Shown here: positions 13,613 through 22,461 of the stretch, piece by piece
Layout: each line of letters opens with the position of its first letter
Numbering within the stretch: position 1 is the first letter of the stretch
Notes under the pieces: model-generated
Database searches by the model: none
What the model was told of the DNA's origin: nothing
The model's input: the letters and a program-made list of their open reading frames with translations, nothing else
Origin: an uncultured Gammaproteobacteria bacterium
GTDB taxonomy: Bacteria > Patescibacteriota > Microgenomatia > Levybacterales > GWA1-39-11
Assembly: GCA_964448725.1 (NCBI GenBank)
Contig: CAYVAJ010000007.1
Coordinates: 1-58,531 of the forward strand
DNA: 58,531 nucleotides
Direction of reading: 5' to 3'
Made by a program: the position numbers and the translations under genes

Positions 13613-13996
13613 TTAAAGTTTAAATTTTCTTTTGCCTTTGAGCGTTAATAAGCTTGCACCAATTATATTACACAATTGCCTTGTTTCATCAAGAAATTGA
13701 TTAACTTTCACTTTATCACTTTCTGTAGCATCTCTTAAAATTCCTAACCAGTACTGTGTTTCAGTAGCGCTTTTTAATGCAATATTAAAAAACTTAATAA
13801 AATCACGTTTACTCGATGCCGCTTGTGCTTCAATTATATTTGCTCCGATCGAAGTGGCAGAACGTAGTAACTGATCAGATATAACCCAATATACCCTTGA
13901 ATCAGGTAGCGTTGAAACATATTTTACAATTGCAATTGAGAATTTATACGCGCGTATTTTTAACTCTTGCTTTGTTCTATTTTCTTCGCTATCCAT
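13613..13996 (-). CDS. four-helix-bundle protein (23S rRNA intervening-sequence protein family)
   Basis: SATSIGANIIEAQAASSKRDFIKFFNIALKSATETQYWL signature. Confidence 0.8.
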   Translation of the reverse strand: MDSEENRTKQELKIRAYKFSIAIVKYVSTLPDSRVYWVISDQLLRSATSIGANIIEAQAASSKRDFIKFFNIALKSATETQYWLGILRDATESDKVKVNQFLDETRQLCNIIGASLLTLKGKRKFKL

Positions 13997-14061
13997 TTTC
14001 AGTTATAGCTTTACATTTTAAGCTCTAAACTCTTCGCTTACCTGAAAGGATACCAGAAATT

Positions 14062-14385
14062 TTATTTGATTTCACTATCTTGAACGTGATGTGTTGCATC
14101 TGTGTCATTTTGTTCAGATGGAATATCATAGTCTTTATTACCATTGAGAGACATAAGAATTACCTCTTTCCCATTTCTTGGACATAGTGCAGTCTCAGTA
14201 CCCAAGAGTGATGCAGGGACAATTCCTGAATCATACTGACATCCTTTGATTTTTTCAGTTGCTAAATATGGACATGTGACTCCGTCATTTTGTATGCAGG
14301 GAGACAGCATGAGAGAATCATTTTGTTGTGTTTCTCTGATTGCTTGTGCCATATCAATTGATGTACGTATTTTATTTTCTATCAT
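14062..14385 (-). CDS. orphan 107-aa Cys-containing protein (driven by module M1)
   Basis: 13-nt SD AGAAAGGAGGTGA lies 7 nt before ATG 14385. No family recognised. Confidence 0.55.
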   Translation of the reverse strand: MIENKIRTSIDMAQAIRETQQNDSLMLSPCIQNDGVTCPYLATEKIKGCQYDSGIVPASLLGTETALCPRNGKEVILMSLNGNKDYDIPSEQNDTDATHHVQDSEIK

Positions 14386-14450
14386 ATGTATTTCACCTCC
14401 TTTCTTGTCATAACCTTCGGCTATGCTCAGGATATTGGCATTTTGCCAAT

Positions 14451-14473
14451 AAAAAAACCTCCCGTTTGGGAGG
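14451..14473 (-). terminator. intrinsic terminator CCTCCC-AAAC-GGGAGG-T7 (M1)
   Basis: 6-bp GC stem, 4-nt loop, seven T. Confidence 0.7.
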
Positions 14474-14501
14474 TCTGTGCATTCGTGGCTTTTACGTTTA
14501 T

Positions 14502-14606
14502 TTACTTGCTCATACCACGAGCAAACCTCCCTTTAAGGGAAGTAAAGTAAAAAAAGTAAAAAGCTTGCGCGGTTTGGGTAATGGTATATAGATTCTGAGC
14601 GGCCAT
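14502..14606 (-). CDS. possible 34-codon leader ORF of M1
   Basis: ATG 6 nt after the rplT stop. MAAQNLYTITQTAQAFYFFYFTSLKGRFARGMSK reads through seg1 and seg2 and stops 28 nt before seg3. No SD. Confidence 0.25.
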   Translation of the reverse strand: MAAQNLYTITQTAQAFYFFYFTSLKGRFARGMSK

Positions 14607-17540: not shown

Positions 17541-17629
17541 ACTTTATACTTATCTCGTACTATATCAGAAAATAGGCTCAATATGAAGTCTTATTCTTAC
17601 AAAAGCATATCTGCAGCTATGCTTTGTTT

Positions 17630-17860: not shown

Positions 17861-17924
17861 ATATGTCACCTCCTTTCTTGTTATAACCTTTGGCTATGCT
17901 CAGGGTTATTGGTATTTTGCCAAT

Positions 17925-17947
17925 AAAAAAACCTCCCATGTGGGAGG
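17925..17947 (-). terminator. intrinsic terminator CCTCCC-ACAT-GGGAGG-T7 (M2)
   Basis: 6-bp GC stem plus T7. Confidence 0.7.
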
Positions 17948-17974
17948 TCTGTCAGCACGCAAACAAAAACCTCC

Positions 17975-18019
17975 CTAGGAAGCTTTCATTTGCATCATTA
18001 CGTTAGTTGTTATTATCAT
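17975..18019 (-). CDS. 14-codon leader mini-ORF of M2 (MIITTNVMMQMKAS)
   Basis: ATG 9 nt after TATAAT (18034-18029). The stop TAG (17977-17975) is the loop of the seg1:seg2 hairpin. Confidence 0.4.
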   Translation of the reverse strand: MIITTNVMMQMKAS

Positions 18020-18059
18020 AGTGCAATTATTATATATCAAATCTTTCATTTGTATGCAA

Positions 18060-18332
18060 TTAGCTATTGCGGATTGAGCCTTGTTCATACAGGTAATTTA
18101 AAATATCACTGATAAAATTCCCAACAAACGGTATAACGTCAACGAACTGAGATAAAAGACTTACTAATGAAAGAATTAACGCAATACCAATGATCGATCC
18201 AATTCCCCAAAAAATACCTCCAAGTAAATTGTTTGCGATTATCTCTCCTTTTGATAATTTAGAAGATCTTTCAAATGGTTGAACTGGTGTGGTTGGTGGG
18301 GGTGTTTCTTTGCTTTTCTTAAATTTTGCCAT
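18060..18332 (-). CDS. small membrane protein
   Basis: Start taken at MAKFKKSKETPPP because the longer track ORF runs into the tRNA-Val gene. One TM helix GGIFWGIGSIIGIALILSLVSLL. Confidence 0.5.
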   Translation of the reverse strand: MAKFKKSKETPPPTTPVQPFERSSKLSKGEIIANNLLGGIFWGIGSIIGIALILSLVSLLSQFVDVIPFVGNFISDILNYLYEQGSIRNS

Positions 18333-18397
18333 TGCGTCTACTAGTGTACCATAATTATGTGATTTTGGAACCCCAGATAATGCTGAATAGAGTTTTG

Positions 18398-18469
18398 TGC
18401 GCGCACATGGGTTCGAACCAAGGACCTCTTCGATGTCAACGAAGCACTCTACCACTGAGCTATGCGCGC
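18398..18469 (-). tRNA. tRNA-Val (GAC)
   Basis: Hand-folded cloverleaf: acceptor GCGCGCA/TGCGCGC, anticodon arm CTTCG-TTGACAT-CGAAG, T-loop TTCGAAC (one U-U in the T stem). No encoded CCA. Confidence 0.8.
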
Positions 18470-18479
18470 TAATTTAAAT

Positions 18480-18655
18480 TAATGTGCTCACCACACTTGT
18501 CTGCGGCTTGCCTTGCAAGTGATCTCCCTCACTACGTTCAGTCCGATCCAACTGAGCTATGACTCCAAATAAAGCTGTCTGTTTGATAGTTAGCAGACTT
18601 AAGCTATGACTCCGGAATAATCAAAACCTGACTATGATAGACAAGCTATGACTTG
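18480..18655 (-). repeat. three tandem copies of a tRNA 5'-end-like fragment
   Basis: Minus strand GGAGTCATAGCTCAGTTGGA (18566-18547), GGAGTCATAGCTT (18613-18601), AAGTCATAGCTT (18654-18643). No matching 3' acceptor strand found. Confidence 0.5.
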
Positions 18656-18703
18656 CGAGAGCCTCACAATTATACAAAAGCAGTACGTGTTTGACAATGA
18701 AGA

Positions 18704-18943
18704 TTATCCTTTATGTACCAGATCTTGTATATGTACTATCTGGTTTTCTGATGCACTTACTTCATTAAATGGATTTTCAGGATATTGTACTTCAATGAGA
18801 TCACCATATGAATCAAAAGCATTTTGGATAGCTGCTGTTACGTGCTCAACTTCTTGAACAGAATTCTGCTGGGTATGCTCCAAATCTCTATTACTCCAGT
18901 TGTTATACATATCTTGTATCATTGCTAATTCATGATTTGCCAT
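18704..18943 (-). CDS. orphan 79-aa acidic protein (driven by module M3)
   Basis: AGAAAGGAGGTGA SD 7 nt before ATG 18943. Confidence 0.5.
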   Translation of the reverse strand: MANHELAMIQDMYNNWSNRDLEHTQQNSVQEVEHVTAAIQNAFDSYGDLIEVQYPENPFNEVSASENQIVHIQDLVHKG

Positions 18944-19010
18944 ACTATTTTCACCTCCTTTCTTTTCATAACCCTTCGACTATGCTCAGGGTTATTGGCA
19001 TCTTGCCAAT

Positions 19011-19051
19011 AAAAAAACCTCCTGTTGCCTCGTTGTACGAGGTAAAGGAGG
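19011..19051 (-). terminator. intrinsic terminator CCTCC...GGAGG-T7 with inner hairpin (M3)
   Basis: CCTCC/GGAGG outer stem, inner CCTCG-TACAA-CGAGG, then seven T. Confidence 0.6.
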
Positions 19052-19078
19052 TTGCCAATTCACTGGAACAACACTCCC

Positions 19079-19132
19079 TTAAGGAGTAATAATTCCAAGA
19101 ATAATGTCAAATTGTATATATTGTTTTTTCAT
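19079..19132 (-). CDS. 17-codon leader mini-ORF of M3 (MKKQYIQFDIILGIITP)
   Basis: The stop TAA (19081-19079) is exactly the loop of hairpin ACTCCT-TAA-GGGAGT. Confidence 0.35.
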   Translation of the reverse strand: MKKQYIQFDIILGIITP

Positions 19133-19167
19133 ATGTTGTCTAGCTATATTTTTGTTAGTTTCGAGAT

Positions 19168-19191
19168 GAGGGGCACAGACGTGTGCCCCTC
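19168..19191 (-). terminator. GC-rich hairpin after ORF 19267-19548
   Basis: GAGGGGCAC-6 nt-GTGCCCCTC, a 9-bp stem with no clear T-run. Confidence 0.4.
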
Positions 19192-19266
19192 GTGATAGTA
19201 AGCCGGTCAGCGGTTTTCCAATTTCCTCGCGATTGAGGAGTTGGACAGTCAAGCGCTGTCCCGGAC

Positions 19267-19548
19267 TTAAAATTGTGGTACTTGTGTTTTATCTCCAAAG
19301 CTAGGGCCACGTTTGTTGCCCTGTTTACGCTTTTCTGGGTGCACAAGAGGCCCCCAGGGAGTATCTGAAGGAGGATCTTGAATGTGGGAGTAGCCATCAT
19401 CTGAAACTGCTCCACAATTCTTTTCATCGGGAGCGCTATAATTAGTAGCGCCATCCCATTCGCCCCAATGAGCCTCAAGGATTTCTCGATGAAGCTCTGC
19501 TAACTTGAGTTCCTCTCGGTTCGGTCTGCGTAGTTTACTGGAGTTCAT
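19267..19548 (-). CDS. G+C-rich orphan protein D (93 aa)
   Basis: GAAAGGAAG SD 5 nt before the ATG. 13-nt gap after the upstream ORF. No family recognised. Confidence 0.5.
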   Translation of the reverse strand: MNSSKLRRPNREELKLAELHREILEAHWGEWDGATNYSAPDEKNCGAVSDDGYSHIQDPPSDTPWGPLVHPEKRKQGNKRGPSFGDKTQVPQF

Positions 19549-19560
19549 GATACTTCCTTT

Positions 19561-20163
19561 CTATCCGAAAACATACTCAGATACGGTTGCTCGGATCCCA
19601 CGTCGGCGTGAACGATTCTTTCGTTCCTCCTTGAATTGTCTGACAGGTGTCATATCCCAGTCGTGACCGACCAGTCTATCCCACCTGTTAAGCCATTCTT
19701 GAGCTTGAGCGTTATCCTGTGGCACAGAGCCACACGGAAGTATGCTCTGGTCCTTTTGAAGGACGCGGAGATGAGCGAACCGCAACGTATTGTTGACGAG
19801 AACGCTCATGTCGTGCTTGAGGTGGCGCAGATCGCCTTTCCTCACAAGATGTACCATCGGCGTCTTTAACGCCAGAGGAATGATATCCTTACCGATGAGT
19901 CTGTAAGACTCGATCATAAGGTTCTTTTTGAACCACCTAAACAACTTGCGGTTGCCATCGTAGCCCATGAAGAACAATCCGTCACTTGGAACTTCTTCAG
20001 GATAATCCACTATTTGAACTTTTACGCCTTTTCGTCCTCTTTGAGTTTGGATCGCCATACTGGCTAACTCATCAGAGGAGAGTGCGTAAAGCGTAATGCT
20101 AGGTTGAATGGGAAGTTCCATTTCTTTTATTCCTTGCCGTAAGATTGAATCTATTCCCTTCAC
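19561..20163 (-). CDS. G+C-rich orphan protein C (about 186-200 aa, start uncertain)
   Basis: The track start is GTG 20163. An alternative ATG at 20121 (MELPIQP) has AAGGAA upstream. Basic C-terminal tail KNRSRRRG. Confidence 0.5.
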   Translation of the reverse strand: MKGIDSILRQGIKEMELPIQPSITLYALSSDELASMAIQTQRGRKGVKVQIVDYPEEVPSDGLFFMGYDGNRKLFRWFKKNLMIESYRLIGKDIIPLALKTPMVHLVRKGDLRHLKHDMSVLVNNTLRFAHLRVLQKDQSILPCGSVPQDNAQAQEWLNRWDRLVGHDWDMTPVRQFKEERKNRSRRRGIRATVSEYVFG

Positions 20164-20420
20164 CTCTGTGGTCTATCACACCCTCATGGATGGTGACTCC
20201 TTTCACTTGTACGACTACCACGGTAAAGGGATACTGATGACAAGACATATCACCACTATTCCCTTCACCGTGTGATTAGTACCACGGTGTCTTGTACTGC
20301 ACACAATCGCAGTTGCGCTTTTGCACCATTGATCGTGTTTTCCAAGACGATGTTAATGTACATGCCCCTAAAAAACATCCTTCGGCAATGCTCAGGATTG
20401 TATTTTCTCCTATAAAATAC

Positions 20421-20445
20421 AAAAAAACCTCCCTTTTTGGGGAGG
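20421..20445 (-). terminator. intrinsic terminator CCTCCCC-AAAAA-GGGAGG-T7 (M4)
   Basis: GC stem plus seven T. Confidence 0.7.
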
Positions 20446-20486
20446 TAGTTAGGTATATTCTTTGGGCTATATTGCTCCTCCCACTA

Positions 20487-20543
20487 TTAGACCGCCTCTG
20501 TAAAGAGGACGTTCACAATAATAGGAAGGAGTTGCATACTCAT
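20487..20543 (-). CDS. 18-codon leader mini-ORF of M4 (MSMQLLPIIVNVLFTEAV)
   Basis: ATG 10 nt after the -10, no SD. TAA sits 4 nt before seg2. Same length and same stop context GGTCTAAT as in M6. Confidence 0.5.
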   Translation of the reverse strand: MSMQLLPIIVNVLFTEAV

Positions 20544-20617
20544 ATTAGTAATTATTTTATGCTCATCTGTTTGATTTGTCAACACTGAATTATTTTTTTA
20601 TGATCTTGAGAAAGATT

Positions 20618-20644
20618 GGTTCGGGAGGATAGACCCCCCGAACC
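20618..20644 (-). terminator. 11-bp hairpin after ORF B
   Basis: GGTTCGGGGGG-TCTAT-CCTCCCGAACC (one G-U). Weak T-run. Confidence 0.4.
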
Positions 20645-20691
20645 AAAACGAGAATGCGTGGGCATCAATATTCCGAGCGTACACGGAAATG

Positions 20692-21243
20692 TTACCCCAG
20701 CATCCAGCCAGTGTGCGGACTGAGCAGCCCTCGACTGATTGTGACCGGAGATTTGTATCGATACCGGCGCAGTTTCATGAGTACCTGCTTTAGATCAGGC
20801 GTTTCTTCCCAGTCGACAGAAAGATTTCTCAGGATCTGTACTTCCTTCAGCCATTGTTCATACAGAAGCATGTTTGCTTCCTCTGTGGGCTCACTTGGTC
20901 CCCAGGGGTTCCCTGTATAGTTGCTAACTCGCCATTCTTCGATAGCGACGGCCGCTTCGAGAAGCGGAATATCCAACGAAGCCTCAGCGGATACATAAAT
21001 CCCAAGACGATTAGGTGTCGCAATTGAGTTAGGGCACTCTACTCTGTGTGATGCTGTGCGGATGACAGGAACTTTCTTGTGTTCTGATTCTTGCGGCATT
21101 GCAGTAATTAAGATATCTGTTTCCTCGTGCAGGTCATTGTACTTGTTTGGATAACGCACAATGCATCCTGCGTATTCAAGGATCCTTCCTGCCTCAATCA
21201 CTCGTGGCGGGCTATCAAGATATACACTATATACACACCGCAT
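20692..21243 (-). CDS. G+C-rich orphan protein B (183 aa)
   Basis: AAAGGA SD 8 nt before the ATG. The N-terminus MRCVYSVYLDSPPRVIEAGRILEYAGCIV resembles that of protein A. Confidence 0.55.
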   Translation of the reverse strand: MRCVYSVYLDSPPRVIEAGRILEYAGCIVRYPNKYNDLHEETDILITAMPQESEHKKVPVIRTASHRVECPNSIATPNRLGIYVSAEASLDIPLLEAAVAIEEWRVSNYTGNPWGPSEPTEEANMLLYEQWLKEVQILRNLSVDWEETPDLKQVLMKLRRYRYKSPVTISRGLLSPHTGWMLG

Positions 21244-21405
21244 GATGTGATCCTTTCAGTAAAATCTTTCTCCCCAGATTGGGAGCTAACAAACTCTGAC
21301 GTCTGTCAGAATTTCTCTACTCACAACCTGGTATGTCAAAGAACTACCCATTCGACAACCTGCTTGTAGGCAGGGCTCAGGGTTATGATTCTATTTATAA
21401 GTCAC

Positions 21406-21429
21406 AAAAAAACCTCCCTTTTGGGGAGG
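21406..21429 (-). terminator. intrinsic terminator CCTCCCC-AAAA-GGGAGG-T7 (M5)
   Basis: GC stem plus seven T. Confidence 0.7.
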
Positions 21430-21455
21430 TGCTTTCAGTTAAAAATTATTTTTTA

Positions 21456-21542
21456 CTATACTTTCAGACTATCCCTCCCCACAGCAGTGATATGCCACAT
21501 ACGTGGGAGAGATGTAAGTGTAAAAGAATTGTTTAATTTCAT
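21456..21542 (-). CDS. 28-codon leader mini-ORF of M5 (MKLNNSFTLTSLPRMWHITAVGRDSLKV)
   Basis: ATG 7 nt after the -10 (leaderless). Reads through seg1 and seg2. Stop lies 26 nt before seg3. Confidence 0.45.
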   Translation of the reverse strand: MKLNNSFTLTSLPRMWHITAVGRDSLKV

Positions 21543-21582
21543 ACGGTCTAGTTTAAAGAATATATAGGATTCTGTCAAGGTT

Positions 21583-21616
21583 AAAAGATGCGCGGCGGAT
21601 GGTGATTTCCGCCGCG
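21583..21616 (-). terminator. terminator of ORF A
   Basis: CGCGGCGGA-8 nt-TCCGCCGCG, a 9-bp stem, then CATCTTTT. Sits 5 nt before the M5 -35. Confidence 0.55.
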
Positions 21617-21684
21617 TGTAGTGTGCAATTAGCTCGGTATGAGCATTTGGTCCGACCATGTCGGGAAATACTCCTTGTTCCGAA

Positions 21685-22161
21685 CTAGTAGCCGCTGTAG
21701 AGGCGGACATATCGCACTTTCGGCTTTCCCCTCGCGTCAATGACCGCATAATTGGCCTCTTCGGCCATACGGTTTAATGTTATTTGAATCCTGCGAGGGA
21801 GAGGTTCGTCTATTTTGACAGCAATTTCTTTTGCTGCGTTTACCACAGCAAAGGCAAAGCTGCCTGCGTATTGAGCATTTAAATGCTCACGCATCACTAT
21901 GTGCTGTGAGAACGCTTTTGCCCACCCGGGCATGTGTTCGTCAGATACCCTACGGCGGGTAGTCATGACGTGCCGTTTGTTCCATTGGACTGATCCAAGG
22001 GGAACAAAGATTGCAACATCACCAGGATCTGGATCCATCGCAAAGACGAACCGTTGTGTTTCATGCAGGACTGCTTTCTCTTTCACGAGAAATCCAGCAT
22101 TTCTCAGAGCTTCAGCTGCTTTTGTGCTGGTCGGGCATTCAACATTATAGATGATACGCAT
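21685..22161 (-). CDS. G+C-rich orphan protein A (158 aa)
   Basis: GGAGGTG SD 4 nt before ATG 22161 (the track ORF is 18 codons longer). Line 21901-21960 counts 36/60 G+C. Confidence 0.55.
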   Translation of the reverse strand: MRIIYNVECPTSTKAAEALRNAGFLVKEKAVLHETQRFVFAMDPDPGDVAIFVPLGSVQWNKRHVMTTRRRVSDEHMPGWAKAFSQHIVMREHLNAQYAGSFAFAVVNAAKEIAVKIDEPLPRRIQITLNRMAEEANYAVIDARGKPKVRYVRLYSGY

Positions 22162-22296
22162 GACGCACCTCCATGCTACTTCCACATTGGAAGCACAGAA
22201 CGTTTGACAGTTCAAACGCTCTTCTCTTCCAATGATAATTACTGTTAAAGAACACCCTTCGACAAGCTCAGGGTTATGATTCTATTTATAAGTCAC

Positions 22297-22319
22297 AAAA
22301 AAACCTCCCGTGTGGGAGG
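22297..22319 (-). terminator. intrinsic terminator CCTCCC-ACAC-GGGAGG-T7 (M6)
   Basis: GC stem plus seven T. Confidence 0.7.
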
Positions 22320-22362
22320 TTCCTGAAATTGTATGTAATTTACTTATGACATCTCTCCCACA

Positions 22363-22419
22363 TTAGACCCGCTCCATAAGGAGACAGAAATCAAAAAGTG
22401 GATAGAGATTTTTCATCAT
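22363..22419 (-). CDS. 18-codon leader mini-ORF of M6 (MMKNLYPLFDFCLLMERV)
   Basis: ATG 9 nt after the -10, no SD. TAA sits 3 nt before seg2. Confidence 0.5.
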   Translation of the reverse strand: MMKNLYPLFDFCLLMERV

Positions 22420-22461
22420 TTCGTAATTATTTTAACGAAGTAAAAGCGTTTGTGTCAAGTA

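Follow-up and report, generated by a model that had tools for sequence, protein, structure and literature searches.

Why does one short region of a bacterial genome carry, at least six times within 8 kb, a very short open reading frame (ORF) placed just in front of an intrinsic terminator? The region lies in a 58,531-nucleotide stretch of DNA (GenBank assembly GCA_964448725.1, contig CAYVAJ010000007.1), referred to here as the window. The window is a low-GC (~37%) genome piece, and those homologs of its DUF5660 protein that bear a name come from Candidatus Levybacteria/Levyibacteriota (Microgenomates, in the candidate phyla radiation, CPR). Its minus-strand gene order is trigger factor, DUF5660, a 4-kb stretch of 45-47% GC, tRNA-Val, DUF5665, thrS-infC-rpmI-rplT, two small genes and pheS-pheT. 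On this strand, from 14.4 to 22.5 kb, there are six paralogous modules, M1 to M6. They share one plan: a variable leader, a near-identical terminator (ACCUCCC-N4-GGGAGG-U7), a hairpin with a CCUGAGC...GAAGG element, a Shine-Dalgarno (SD) sequence and a small gene. A scan of the whole window for extra units of promoter, short ORF and terminator found none beyond these six. We suggest that M2 to M6, together with M1, probably form a paralogous family of ribosome-dependent (leader-peptide) transcription attenuators.

The switch that we propose would operate as follows. Each unit would have its own strong sigma-70-type promoter, the exceptions being M1, which would be read from the rplT transcript, and M3, for which no clear promoter is seen. 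The mRNA would begin at, or 1-5 nt before, the AUG of an ORF of 14-34 codons. A pyrimidine-rich segment within the ORF (seg1, ..CUUCC..) would pair with an SD-like segment (seg2, GGGAGG), which could alternatively pair with seg3 (CCUCCC), the 5' arm of the intrinsic terminator (seg3:seg4 followed by U7). With no ribosome present, seg1:seg2 would form and the terminator would fire. It would also fire whenever a ribosome covered seg2, either by standing at the stop codon (in the seg1:seg2 loop in M2 and M3, at the 5' edge of seg2 in M4 and M6) or by having run beyond seg2 (M1 and M5). A ribosome delayed on or just before seg1 would leave seg2 free to form the antiterminator, and the downstream gene would be transcribed.

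The ORFs, their conservation, the alternative pairings and the linkage of the family to phenylalanine can be read directly from the computations. A preliminary description of this DNA had listed five mini-ORFs in M2 to M6 and a 34-codon ORF in M1, and translation returns exactly those peptides and stops (Table 1). For comparison, modules were collected without an ORF criterion, by pattern scans (terminator plus downstream motif) of genome and metagenome collections and from contigs encoding homologs of the neighbouring DUF5660 protein. This gave 32 modules, those from outside the window carrying L numbers, and in all 32 an ATG-initiated ORF runs into seg1. Among 16 non-redundant modules with a promoter, 15 have an ATG 7-12 nt after the -10 hexamer that opens at least 14 codons, where shuffled sequences give 0.04 per module (binomial P = 4e-20). 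Because the modules are homologous and the test treats them as independent, this value measures retention under divergence, not independent origin. The base composition of the frames also has a period of three beyond a null conditioned on the absence of stops (P = 0.0025 for M2 to M6; for 19 non-redundant ORFs the observed value was not attained in any of 2000 shuffles).

Frame, length and stop position are kept by ortholog groups in related contigs, as the preliminary description had proposed to check. M4-type ORFs have 18 codons in five of five cases (M4, L004, L097, L101, L107), and so does the counterpart of M6 in L104 (MMKNLYPLFDLCLLMERV), a contig whose neighbouring DUF5660 protein is 94% identical. 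All four M3-type copies end in IIL(G/E)II-x-x-stop with UAA or UAG in the loop, and their distances from ATG to core (24, 24, 27 and 36 nt) are all multiples of 3, with N-terminal differences of 0, 3 and 12 nt. Both M2-type copies end in ..MQMK(A/S)S-UAG, the M5-type ORFs have 28 and 29 codons, and the M1-type ORFs have 34, 34 and 31 codons around an identical AQAFYFFYFT. In the M1 type, variable columns are distributed 12/7/20 over the codon positions, and a comparison of M1 with L097 shows seven synonymous changes within the first 14 codons. Of the four changes in the M3 core, three are synonymous (ATT>ATC, CTT>CTC). An excess of third-position changes is absent from the M4, M3 and M2 types in the codon-position test, and selection at the amino-acid level is supported for the M1 type only. 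Although outside the helices, the start codon and the open frame do not vary; RNA and peptide are both under constraint.

The ORFs start unusually close to their promoters. In about 20 modules from different genomes the gap between the -10 hexamer and the ATG is 7-12 nt, mostly 9, which predicts a 5' untranslated region (UTR) of ~0-5 nt. Orthologous modules of the related contigs retain this spacing behind a promoter of the form TTGACA-17-TAnnnT. Thus, the starts would lie at or a few nucleotides from the 5' end of the transcript, in agreement with the earlier proposal. Because the ATG is so near to the -10 hexamer, the promoter-bearing Levybacteria modules have no room for an SD. The more specific claim, an ATG 7-10 nt after the hexamer in M2, M4, M5 and M6, holds for M4, M5 and M6 (10, 7 and 9 nt), whose near-consensus sites are the top scorers of the promoter scan; in M2 a gap of 9 nt is obtained only with TTGCAT-19-TATAAT.

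The leader RNAs have the mutually exclusive pairings of an attenuator: folds, covariation and the terminator scan give 1:2, 2:3 and 3:4, the last being an intrinsic terminator with its U-run. The M4-type seg1:seg2 and inner hairpin are supported by covariation: 80% of alignment cells there are paired, a share that drops to 45-64% if the partner is slid, and both sides change in six pairs. Covariation was counted for seg1:seg2, the terminator columns of the A3 alignment being too shifted; an alignment with the distant L109 modules was misaligned and was dropped. In the L097 copy of M1 all four segments have changed jointly (ACCCG, CGGGG, CCCCG, CGGGG), as an attenuator requires. Minimum free energy (MFE) folds agree that the stop codons of M2 and M3 lie in the seg1:seg2 loop, and the same is found in all six M2- and M3-type copies. 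For M4 and M6 the preliminary description had placed the TAA shortly before seg2; their length of 18 codons stands, and the TAA is at the 5' edge of the 3' arm of seg1:seg2, in fact inside that arm. The M5 and M1 ORFs do cross seg2, and their stops are 43-44 nt before the U-run. Over the 32 modules the stop codon lies either 39-49 nt or 55-61 nt from the U-run, in two tight classes.

The effect of a ribosome on these pairings was modelled by masking its footprint codon by codon (through A-site +12) and folding the RNA only up to the end of seg3. An MFE fold of the masked leader with the complete terminator, the first form of this test, was uninformative for most modules, because the 7-8-bp GC-rich terminator always wins thermodynamically, the M1 type excepted. 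When no ribosome is placed, none of the 7-8 bases of seg3 is paired in most modules, which allows the terminator to form. An A site within a central window of codons makes seg3 pair with seg2 as the antiterminator, and once the ribosome has come to the last codons or the stop, seg3 is unpaired again in most modules. The antiterminator window of M4 spans codons 3-17, with codon 18 and the stop outside it; that of M3 opens, fully or partly, at codon 7, lasts through the final sense codon and closes at the stop. In M1, L093, L094 and L095 it ends at or just after the aromatic run (in M1, one or two codons after FYFFYF). The folds thus reproduce the logic suggested earlier, in which the choice between terminator and antiterminator depends on where the ribosome stands with respect to seg1, seg2 and the stop. 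That the stop codon is the switch point is borne out for M3, for M4 and for the M4 orthologs, and the masking is uninformative for M2 and M6.

What do the leaders sense? The answer is clearest for M1. It occupies the position rplT-[leader]-pheS and encodes ..AQAFYFFYFT.., and in L097 the same leader is directly upstream of pheS. An NFYFLF leader in L095 precedes a small ORF and pheS. Leaders with FWFYFYF (L093) and WFYSYF (L094) precede DAHP synthase, which in L094 is followed by prephenate dehydratase, chorismate mutase, prephenate dehydrogenase, aroB, aroQ, aroA and aroK. In E. coli, pheM lies between rplT and pheST, which is M1's position. We take M1 to be an attenuator of pheST that is specific for Phe/Tyr, the counterpart of E. 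coli pheM/pheL. In E-value scans the Rfam model Phe_leader (RF01859) aligns over its full length (1-125) to M1 with 40.8 bits (E = 3e-4), which is under the gathering score of 55, and scores 60.0 bits on L093, which is above it. Below the threshold are L094, L095 and L101 (38-41 bits), M6 (26.8), M2 (24.9) and M5 (21.9), and the Phe_leader scan gave no match to M3 or M4. At gathering thresholds the Rfam scan of the window reported tRNAs alone. A T-box or riboswitch was considered and rejected, as Rfam lent it no support and the sequence before the terminator has no conserved core like that of an aptamer.

The other leaders are less uniform. A cluster of candidate regulatory codons lies in or next to seg1 in M1 (FYFFYF) and probably in M3 (IILGII, conserved in four orthologs). 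IILGII has four Ile in six codons (P ~4e-4 per 6-codon stretch), and similar Ile-rich leaders occur in the independent modules L078 (EIIIT) and L089 (IGIIIT). In M4, L/I/V/F/M make up eight of ten consecutive residues (P ~9e-4), and the leaders of L048, L060, L024 and L103/L110 are rich in the same residues. M4 and M6 are rich in Leu, Ile, Val and Phe, with no run of a single amino acid; M2 contains MMQM, and M5 has one Trp (MW) where its L004 ortholog has WW. Thus, the earlier remark that no mini-ORF has a run of one amino acid is true only literally, and misleads in view of FYFFYF and IILGII. We think that M3 most likely reports the charging of Ile-tRNA, and that M4 and M6 most likely report charging with Leu, Ile, Val or Phe, or simply the speed of elongation. 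One further module of like architecture, L071, has a leader (MKSKNIFSCTCTTIS) that mixes Cys and Thr codons; it sits after a DUF5665-like gene and before a 538-aa protein with no assigned function, with its terminator at ~1717 on the minus strand of that locus.

The E. coli pheL design, considered below, and the Phe-linked relatives together make the modules classical amino-acid attenuators by design and by family. The opposite statement of the preliminary description, that this does not look like an amino-acid-operon attenuator, is therefore unsupported, given the paralogy with M1, the relatives with F/Y/W runs before pheS or an aromatic operon, the Phe_leader matches and the pheL design.

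Several observations weigh against a family of leader-peptide attenuators. Only M1-type modules precede genes for the metabolism or charging of their cognate amino acid (pheS, the aromatic operon); the cargo of M2 to M6 consists of ORFans without a link to amino-acid metabolism, so the logic that would join gene to codon is missing there. We infer the transcription start sites, actual translation and the signals of M2 to M6. M3 has neither a clear promoter nor an SD upstream, as judged from the promoter scan and the sequence. For M2 there are two candidate promoters, and the scan prefers TTGATA-17-GATAAT at 18040-18012, which would put the transcription start after the ATG at 18019 and leave a 7-codon ORF, MMQMKAS. 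The conserved LPII, MQMK and stop codons are all in paired segments. Variable columns of the M4 type are spread evenly over the codon positions (8/11/10), and a compensatory change from CCUC/GAGG to CCGC/GCGG turns VLFTE into VRFNA, which indicates selection on the RNA in this stretch. What looks like peptide conservation in the M4 type is to a large extent conservation of RNA structure. Since the candidate codons of M2 to M6 are all in helices, RNA constraints may contribute to them as well. The masking profiles of M6, its L104 counterpart and L109_a are flat, and part of their seg3 is paired already when no ribosome is placed; these folds mis-delimited the terminator arm of M2 and of its L101 ortholog; and they are a thermodynamic, not a kinetic, approximation. 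As a caution from another system, mutation of the candidate regulatory codons in the S. coelicolor ilvB leader left regulation unaffected (PMC1262725).

The alternative that deserves most attention is a general sensor of translation status or of antibiotics, in which any slowing of the lead ribosome (by drugs, global starvation or poor leaderless initiation) gives read-through into stress or accessory genes. Such a sensor would suit the stop codons at the switch point in M2, M3, M4 and M6, since a delay at almost any codon of a 14-18-codon ORF keeps the antiterminator; for the same reason a general translation-speed sensor is possible for some copies. It would also suit the lack of a single-amino-acid run in M4, M5 and M6, and a cargo that is unrelated to amino-acid metabolism and differs between genomes behind one leader. 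A conserved 3-codon micro-ORF (MRV-stop) with a strong SD, further down the M4-type UTR, points the same way; it resembles the very short drug-sensing ORFs reported in some antibiotic-responsive attenuators. However, some members of the family are clearly specific for Phe, E. coli pheL has the same design, four Ile codons are kept in four M3 orthologs with mostly synonymous changes in the core, and no known arrest motif was recognised. Pfam, NCBIfam, PHROG and PADLOC gave no match for any of the seven cargo proteins, and hence no resistance determinant: no methyltransferase, ABC-F protein, efflux pump or other known domain. The antibiotic-specific form of the idea, one of the two readings offered in the preliminary description, has no positive support, and we regard a general sensor as unlikely, if worth keeping in mind.

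Could the ORFs be incidental? In an RNA-only attenuator a protein, a small RNA or a 30S subunit on GGGAGG would set the switch, or the module would be a gene for a ~120-nt small RNA. A strong promoter, a ~120-nt transcript and a strong terminator are typical small-RNA architecture, conserved peptide segments coincide with helices, and in the M4 type compensatory changes override amino-acid identity. Small RNAs that derive from attenuators and act in trans are known, rnTrpL being one (PMC6614838), and we count this in favour of the idea. What makes it very improbable to us is that the ATG and its distance from the -10 hexamer do not vary while the next 2-4 codons have diverged to saturation, that the frame is open in every module found with a significant period-3 composition, that indels in the M2 and M3 types preserve the frame, that the M1 type has its third-position excess, and that the aromatic codon runs are tied to genes of Phe and the aromatic pathway. 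Conversely, the mini-ORFs might encode functional small hydrophobic peptides (18-30 aa, membrane-active or like type-I toxins), with the RNA structure only limiting their translation. The peptides of M4, M6, L048, L060 and L024 are indeed strongly hydrophobic. Orthologs, however, put Arg, Lys, Asn and Glu inside the stretch (VLF to VRF; V/M to N/K), and M1, M2, M3 and M5 have the same architecture without being hydrophobic, so that we give this explanation hardly any credence. We therefore favor ribosome-dependent attenuation.

The genes behind the attenuators raise a further point. Between the DUF5660 gene and the HD/DUF5665 genes there is a hypervariable island, the content of which differs among close relatives (L004, L078, L097, L101, L109). 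In the window its cargo at 19267-22215 (orf158, orf183, orf200, orf93) has 45-47% GC against 36-38% for the backbone, and all four are ORFans; among 5.8 billion proteins searched, orf200 matched only itself and one relative of 83% identity. The M4-type leader precedes three unrelated cargos in different genomes, and the UTR after its terminator (~20130-20420, minus strand) is conserved in M4, L004, L097, L101 and L107 despite this difference in cargo. This UTR has a long hairpin (GUCUUG...CAAGAC), the SD GAAAGGAG and the micro-ORF ATG AGG GTG TGA at 20187-20176. In L004 the micro-ORF reads MRS-stop, and in L101 it begins ATG CGT GTT..., where another codon family still specifies Arg. The M5 and M6 cargo genes, in a homologous SD context, start with MRCVY and MRIIY. 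The part of the platform that is conserved seems to extend as far as SD-ATG-Arg, and the exchange of cargo seems to take place immediately downstream of it. We tentatively raise the possibility that promoter, 18-codon leader ORF, terminator and UTR through the SD-ATG-Arg micro-ORF form a portable, near-leaderless attenuator platform, a generic expression socket in the Levybacteria island tig-DUF5660-[island]-HD-DUF5665 into which foreign, higher-GC ORFans are swapped. The leader would then report the overall speed of translation or the host-supplied amino acids, not one cognate amino acid, and the accessory genes would be switched on when the episymbiont is starved.

Other features of the locus were recorded alongside. 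After each U-run there is a post-terminator element, a covarying hairpin followed by CCUGAGC-N(2-25)-GYCGAAGG. As a part of the switch it was rejected: it is a ~45-nt insertion between terminator and SD that is absent from the orthologous modules of L097, L101 and L107. Its CCUGAGC/GAAGG core is very widespread, with dozens of copies, often in inverted pairs, in a Chloroflexota metagenome-assembled genome (MAG) and a Ktedonobacteraceae MAG. In Bacteroidota (L026, L036) the core adjoins duplicated tRNA 3' ends, and in L060 one copy is nested within another. No Rfam family matched the element, and its appearance is that of a small mobile or repeat element inserting immediately 3' of terminators.

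Between the M1 attenuator and pheS, at 13613-14385 on the minus strand, there are an ORFan (107 aa) and a four-helix-bundle gene of the 23S-rRNA-intervening-sequence family (PF05635, 127 aa); compared with L097, where the leader is directly before pheS, these extra genes suggest insertion behind the attenuator. Upstream of thrS (17541-17600, minus strand) there is an extended -10-like promoter of its own (TGATATAGT), which is conserved in L097, so that the M2 attenuator probably controls only a 76-aa ORFan and not thrS. L097 has neither the M2 module nor this ORFan. At ~18470-18660 on the minus strand, three degenerate copies of GAGTCATAGCT(CAGTTGG) lie between a strong promoter (18697-18669, TTGTCA-17-TATAAT) and tRNA-Val(GAC). 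The repeat resembles the 5' end of a tRNA acceptor/D-arm; ARAGORN and Rfam called nothing in this stretch, which is absent in L097, where the promoter is directly before the tRNA.

Table 1. Coordinates of the attenuator modules in the window (positions count from the first letter of the window; every peptide is followed by its stop codon)
Feature	Position	Strand	Basis	Details
M1 leader ORF MAAQNLYTITQTAQAFYFFYFTSLKGRFARGMSK	14502..14606	-		34 codons; starts 5 nt after the rplT stop; FYFFYF codons 14544-14561; seg1:seg2 hairpin 14525-14543; outside the range (17975-22419) of the preliminary description
M1 terminator	14451..14475	-	terminator scan	
M2 promoter-like site	18029..18059	-		TTGCAT-19-TATAAT; ends 9 nt before ATG
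M2 leader ORF MIITTNVMMQMKAS	17975..18019	-	translation	ortholog L101_M2 MNSHQLVLSMQMKSS
M2 seg1:seg2 hairpin	17959..17993	-	MFE	16 bp; triloop is the UAG stop; 3' arm GGGAGGU is seg2
M2 intrinsic terminator (seg3:seg4)	17925..17949	-	terminator scan	GACCUCCC-ACAU-GGGAGGU7
M3 leader ORF MKKQYIQFDIILGIITP	19079..19132	-		Ile-rich core 19088-19105; orthologs MKNHTLQSIILEIISS, MSKHLIKSIILEIISS, MKDITLQTNRQVIILGIIYS
M3 seg1:seg2 hairpin	19065..19096	-	MFE	UAA stop in loop
M3 terminator	19011..19053	-	MFE	long AACCUCCU...AGGAGGU7 stem with inner hairpin
M4 promoter-like site	20554..20582	-		TTGACA-17-TAAAAT (11/12); ends 10 nt before ATG
M4 leader ORF MSMQLLPIIVNVLFTEAV	20487..20543	-		18 codons; also 18 in four orthologs
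M4 seg1, inner hairpin and seg2	20475..20531	-	MFE, covariation	seg1 20516-20531; inner hairpin 20495-20508; seg2 20475-20490, with TAA stop and GGGAGGAG
M4 terminator	20421..20446	-	terminator scan	ACCUCCCC-AAAAA-GGGAGGU7
M5 promoter-like site	21550..21578	-		TTGACA-17-TAAACT; ends 7 nt before ATG
M5 leader ORF MKLNNSFTLTSLPRMWHITAVGRDSLKV	21456..21542	-		28 codons; crosses seg1 21502-21512 and seg2 21472-21484; L004 ortholog MNYTYSFTRKYSPRWWKNTCVGGIVKYKN, 29 codons
M5 terminator	21406..21430	-	terminator scan	
M6 promoter-like site	22429..22458	-		TTGACA-18-TAAAAT (11/12); ends 9 nt before ATG
M6 leader ORF MMKNLYPLFDFCLLMERV	22363..22419	-		18 codons; diverged M4-type paralogue
M6 seg1, inner hairpin and seg2	22351..22409	-	MFE, covariation	seg1 22398-22409; inner hairpin 22372-22383; seg2 22351-22361
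M6 terminator	22297..22321	-		
Post-terminator element copies	14410-14450, 17883-17924, 18968-19010, 20377-20420, 21346-21405, 22254-22296	-		

To our knowledge, almost nothing is known about gene regulation in CPR bacteria. Our literature searches found no report of leader peptides or attenuation in CPR/Patescibacteria, and those with the post-terminator motif sequence gave nothing relevant. The present analysis indicates leader-peptide attenuation in a CPR bacterium, with a construction that matches the E. coli phe leader nearly base for base. The mechanism itself is not new, as leader-peptide attenuators are known in Proteobacteria, and a specialist will be only moderately surprised. New are the CPR taxon, a near-leaderless start that is conserved, the multiplication of a single scaffold together with its terminator sequence, and its use before ORFans in a variable island. 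For organisms whose amino acids come from a host, the modules provide a set of candidate sensors of amino acids or of translation, and they flag accessory genes that are likely induced by starvation.

Known systems share parts of this design. Antibiotic-inducible leader peptides (erm, cat, ABC-F) use a ribosome stalled on a short ORF to remodel the RNA downstream; the Levybacteria modules differ in having no downstream resistance gene in domain searches and no recognised arrest motif. In mycobacteria, leaderless polycysteine short ORFs (the 'Cys ribulon') are sensory first cistrons, present in several copies per genome, that give a collective ribosome-mediated response (bioRxiv 10.1101/834739). 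The multiple copies are common to both systems, and so, on the predicted starts, would be the leaderless sensory ORF as first cistron. The mycobacterial ORFs, however, have an obvious Cys run and targets in Cys metabolism, whereas the Levybacteria modules have a terminator, mixed codons and ORFan targets; the window ORFs have no Cys tract, and control would be exerted through an intrinsic terminator, not through the unmasking of a downstream ribosome-binding site. In Actinobacteria, leader-peptide attenuators (trp, ilvB, leuS, trpS) have been predicted from ORFs and terminators before biosynthetic and aminoacyl-tRNA synthetase genes (PMC1262725); these too are outside Proteobacteria, in a different phylum.

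The closest likeness is to the phe leaders of E. coli. The pheL region reads UUU ACC UUC CCC UGA AUGGGAGG ... GGCCUCCCAAAUCGGGGGGCCUUUUUU, and, as in M2 and M3, its stop is in the loop of a hairpin (CUUCCC-CUGAAU-GGGAGG), followed by a terminator of the CCUCCC...GGGAGG-U type. Common to both is a short ORF with, in M1, Phe-rich codons immediately 5' of the CUUCCC...GGGAGG hairpin. The differences are in the start, pheL having a normal SD (AAGGA) and a 5' UTR where the promoter-bearing Levybacteria modules leave no space for one, and in the use of the design, which in this CPR genome stands five times before ORFans and not before Phe genes.

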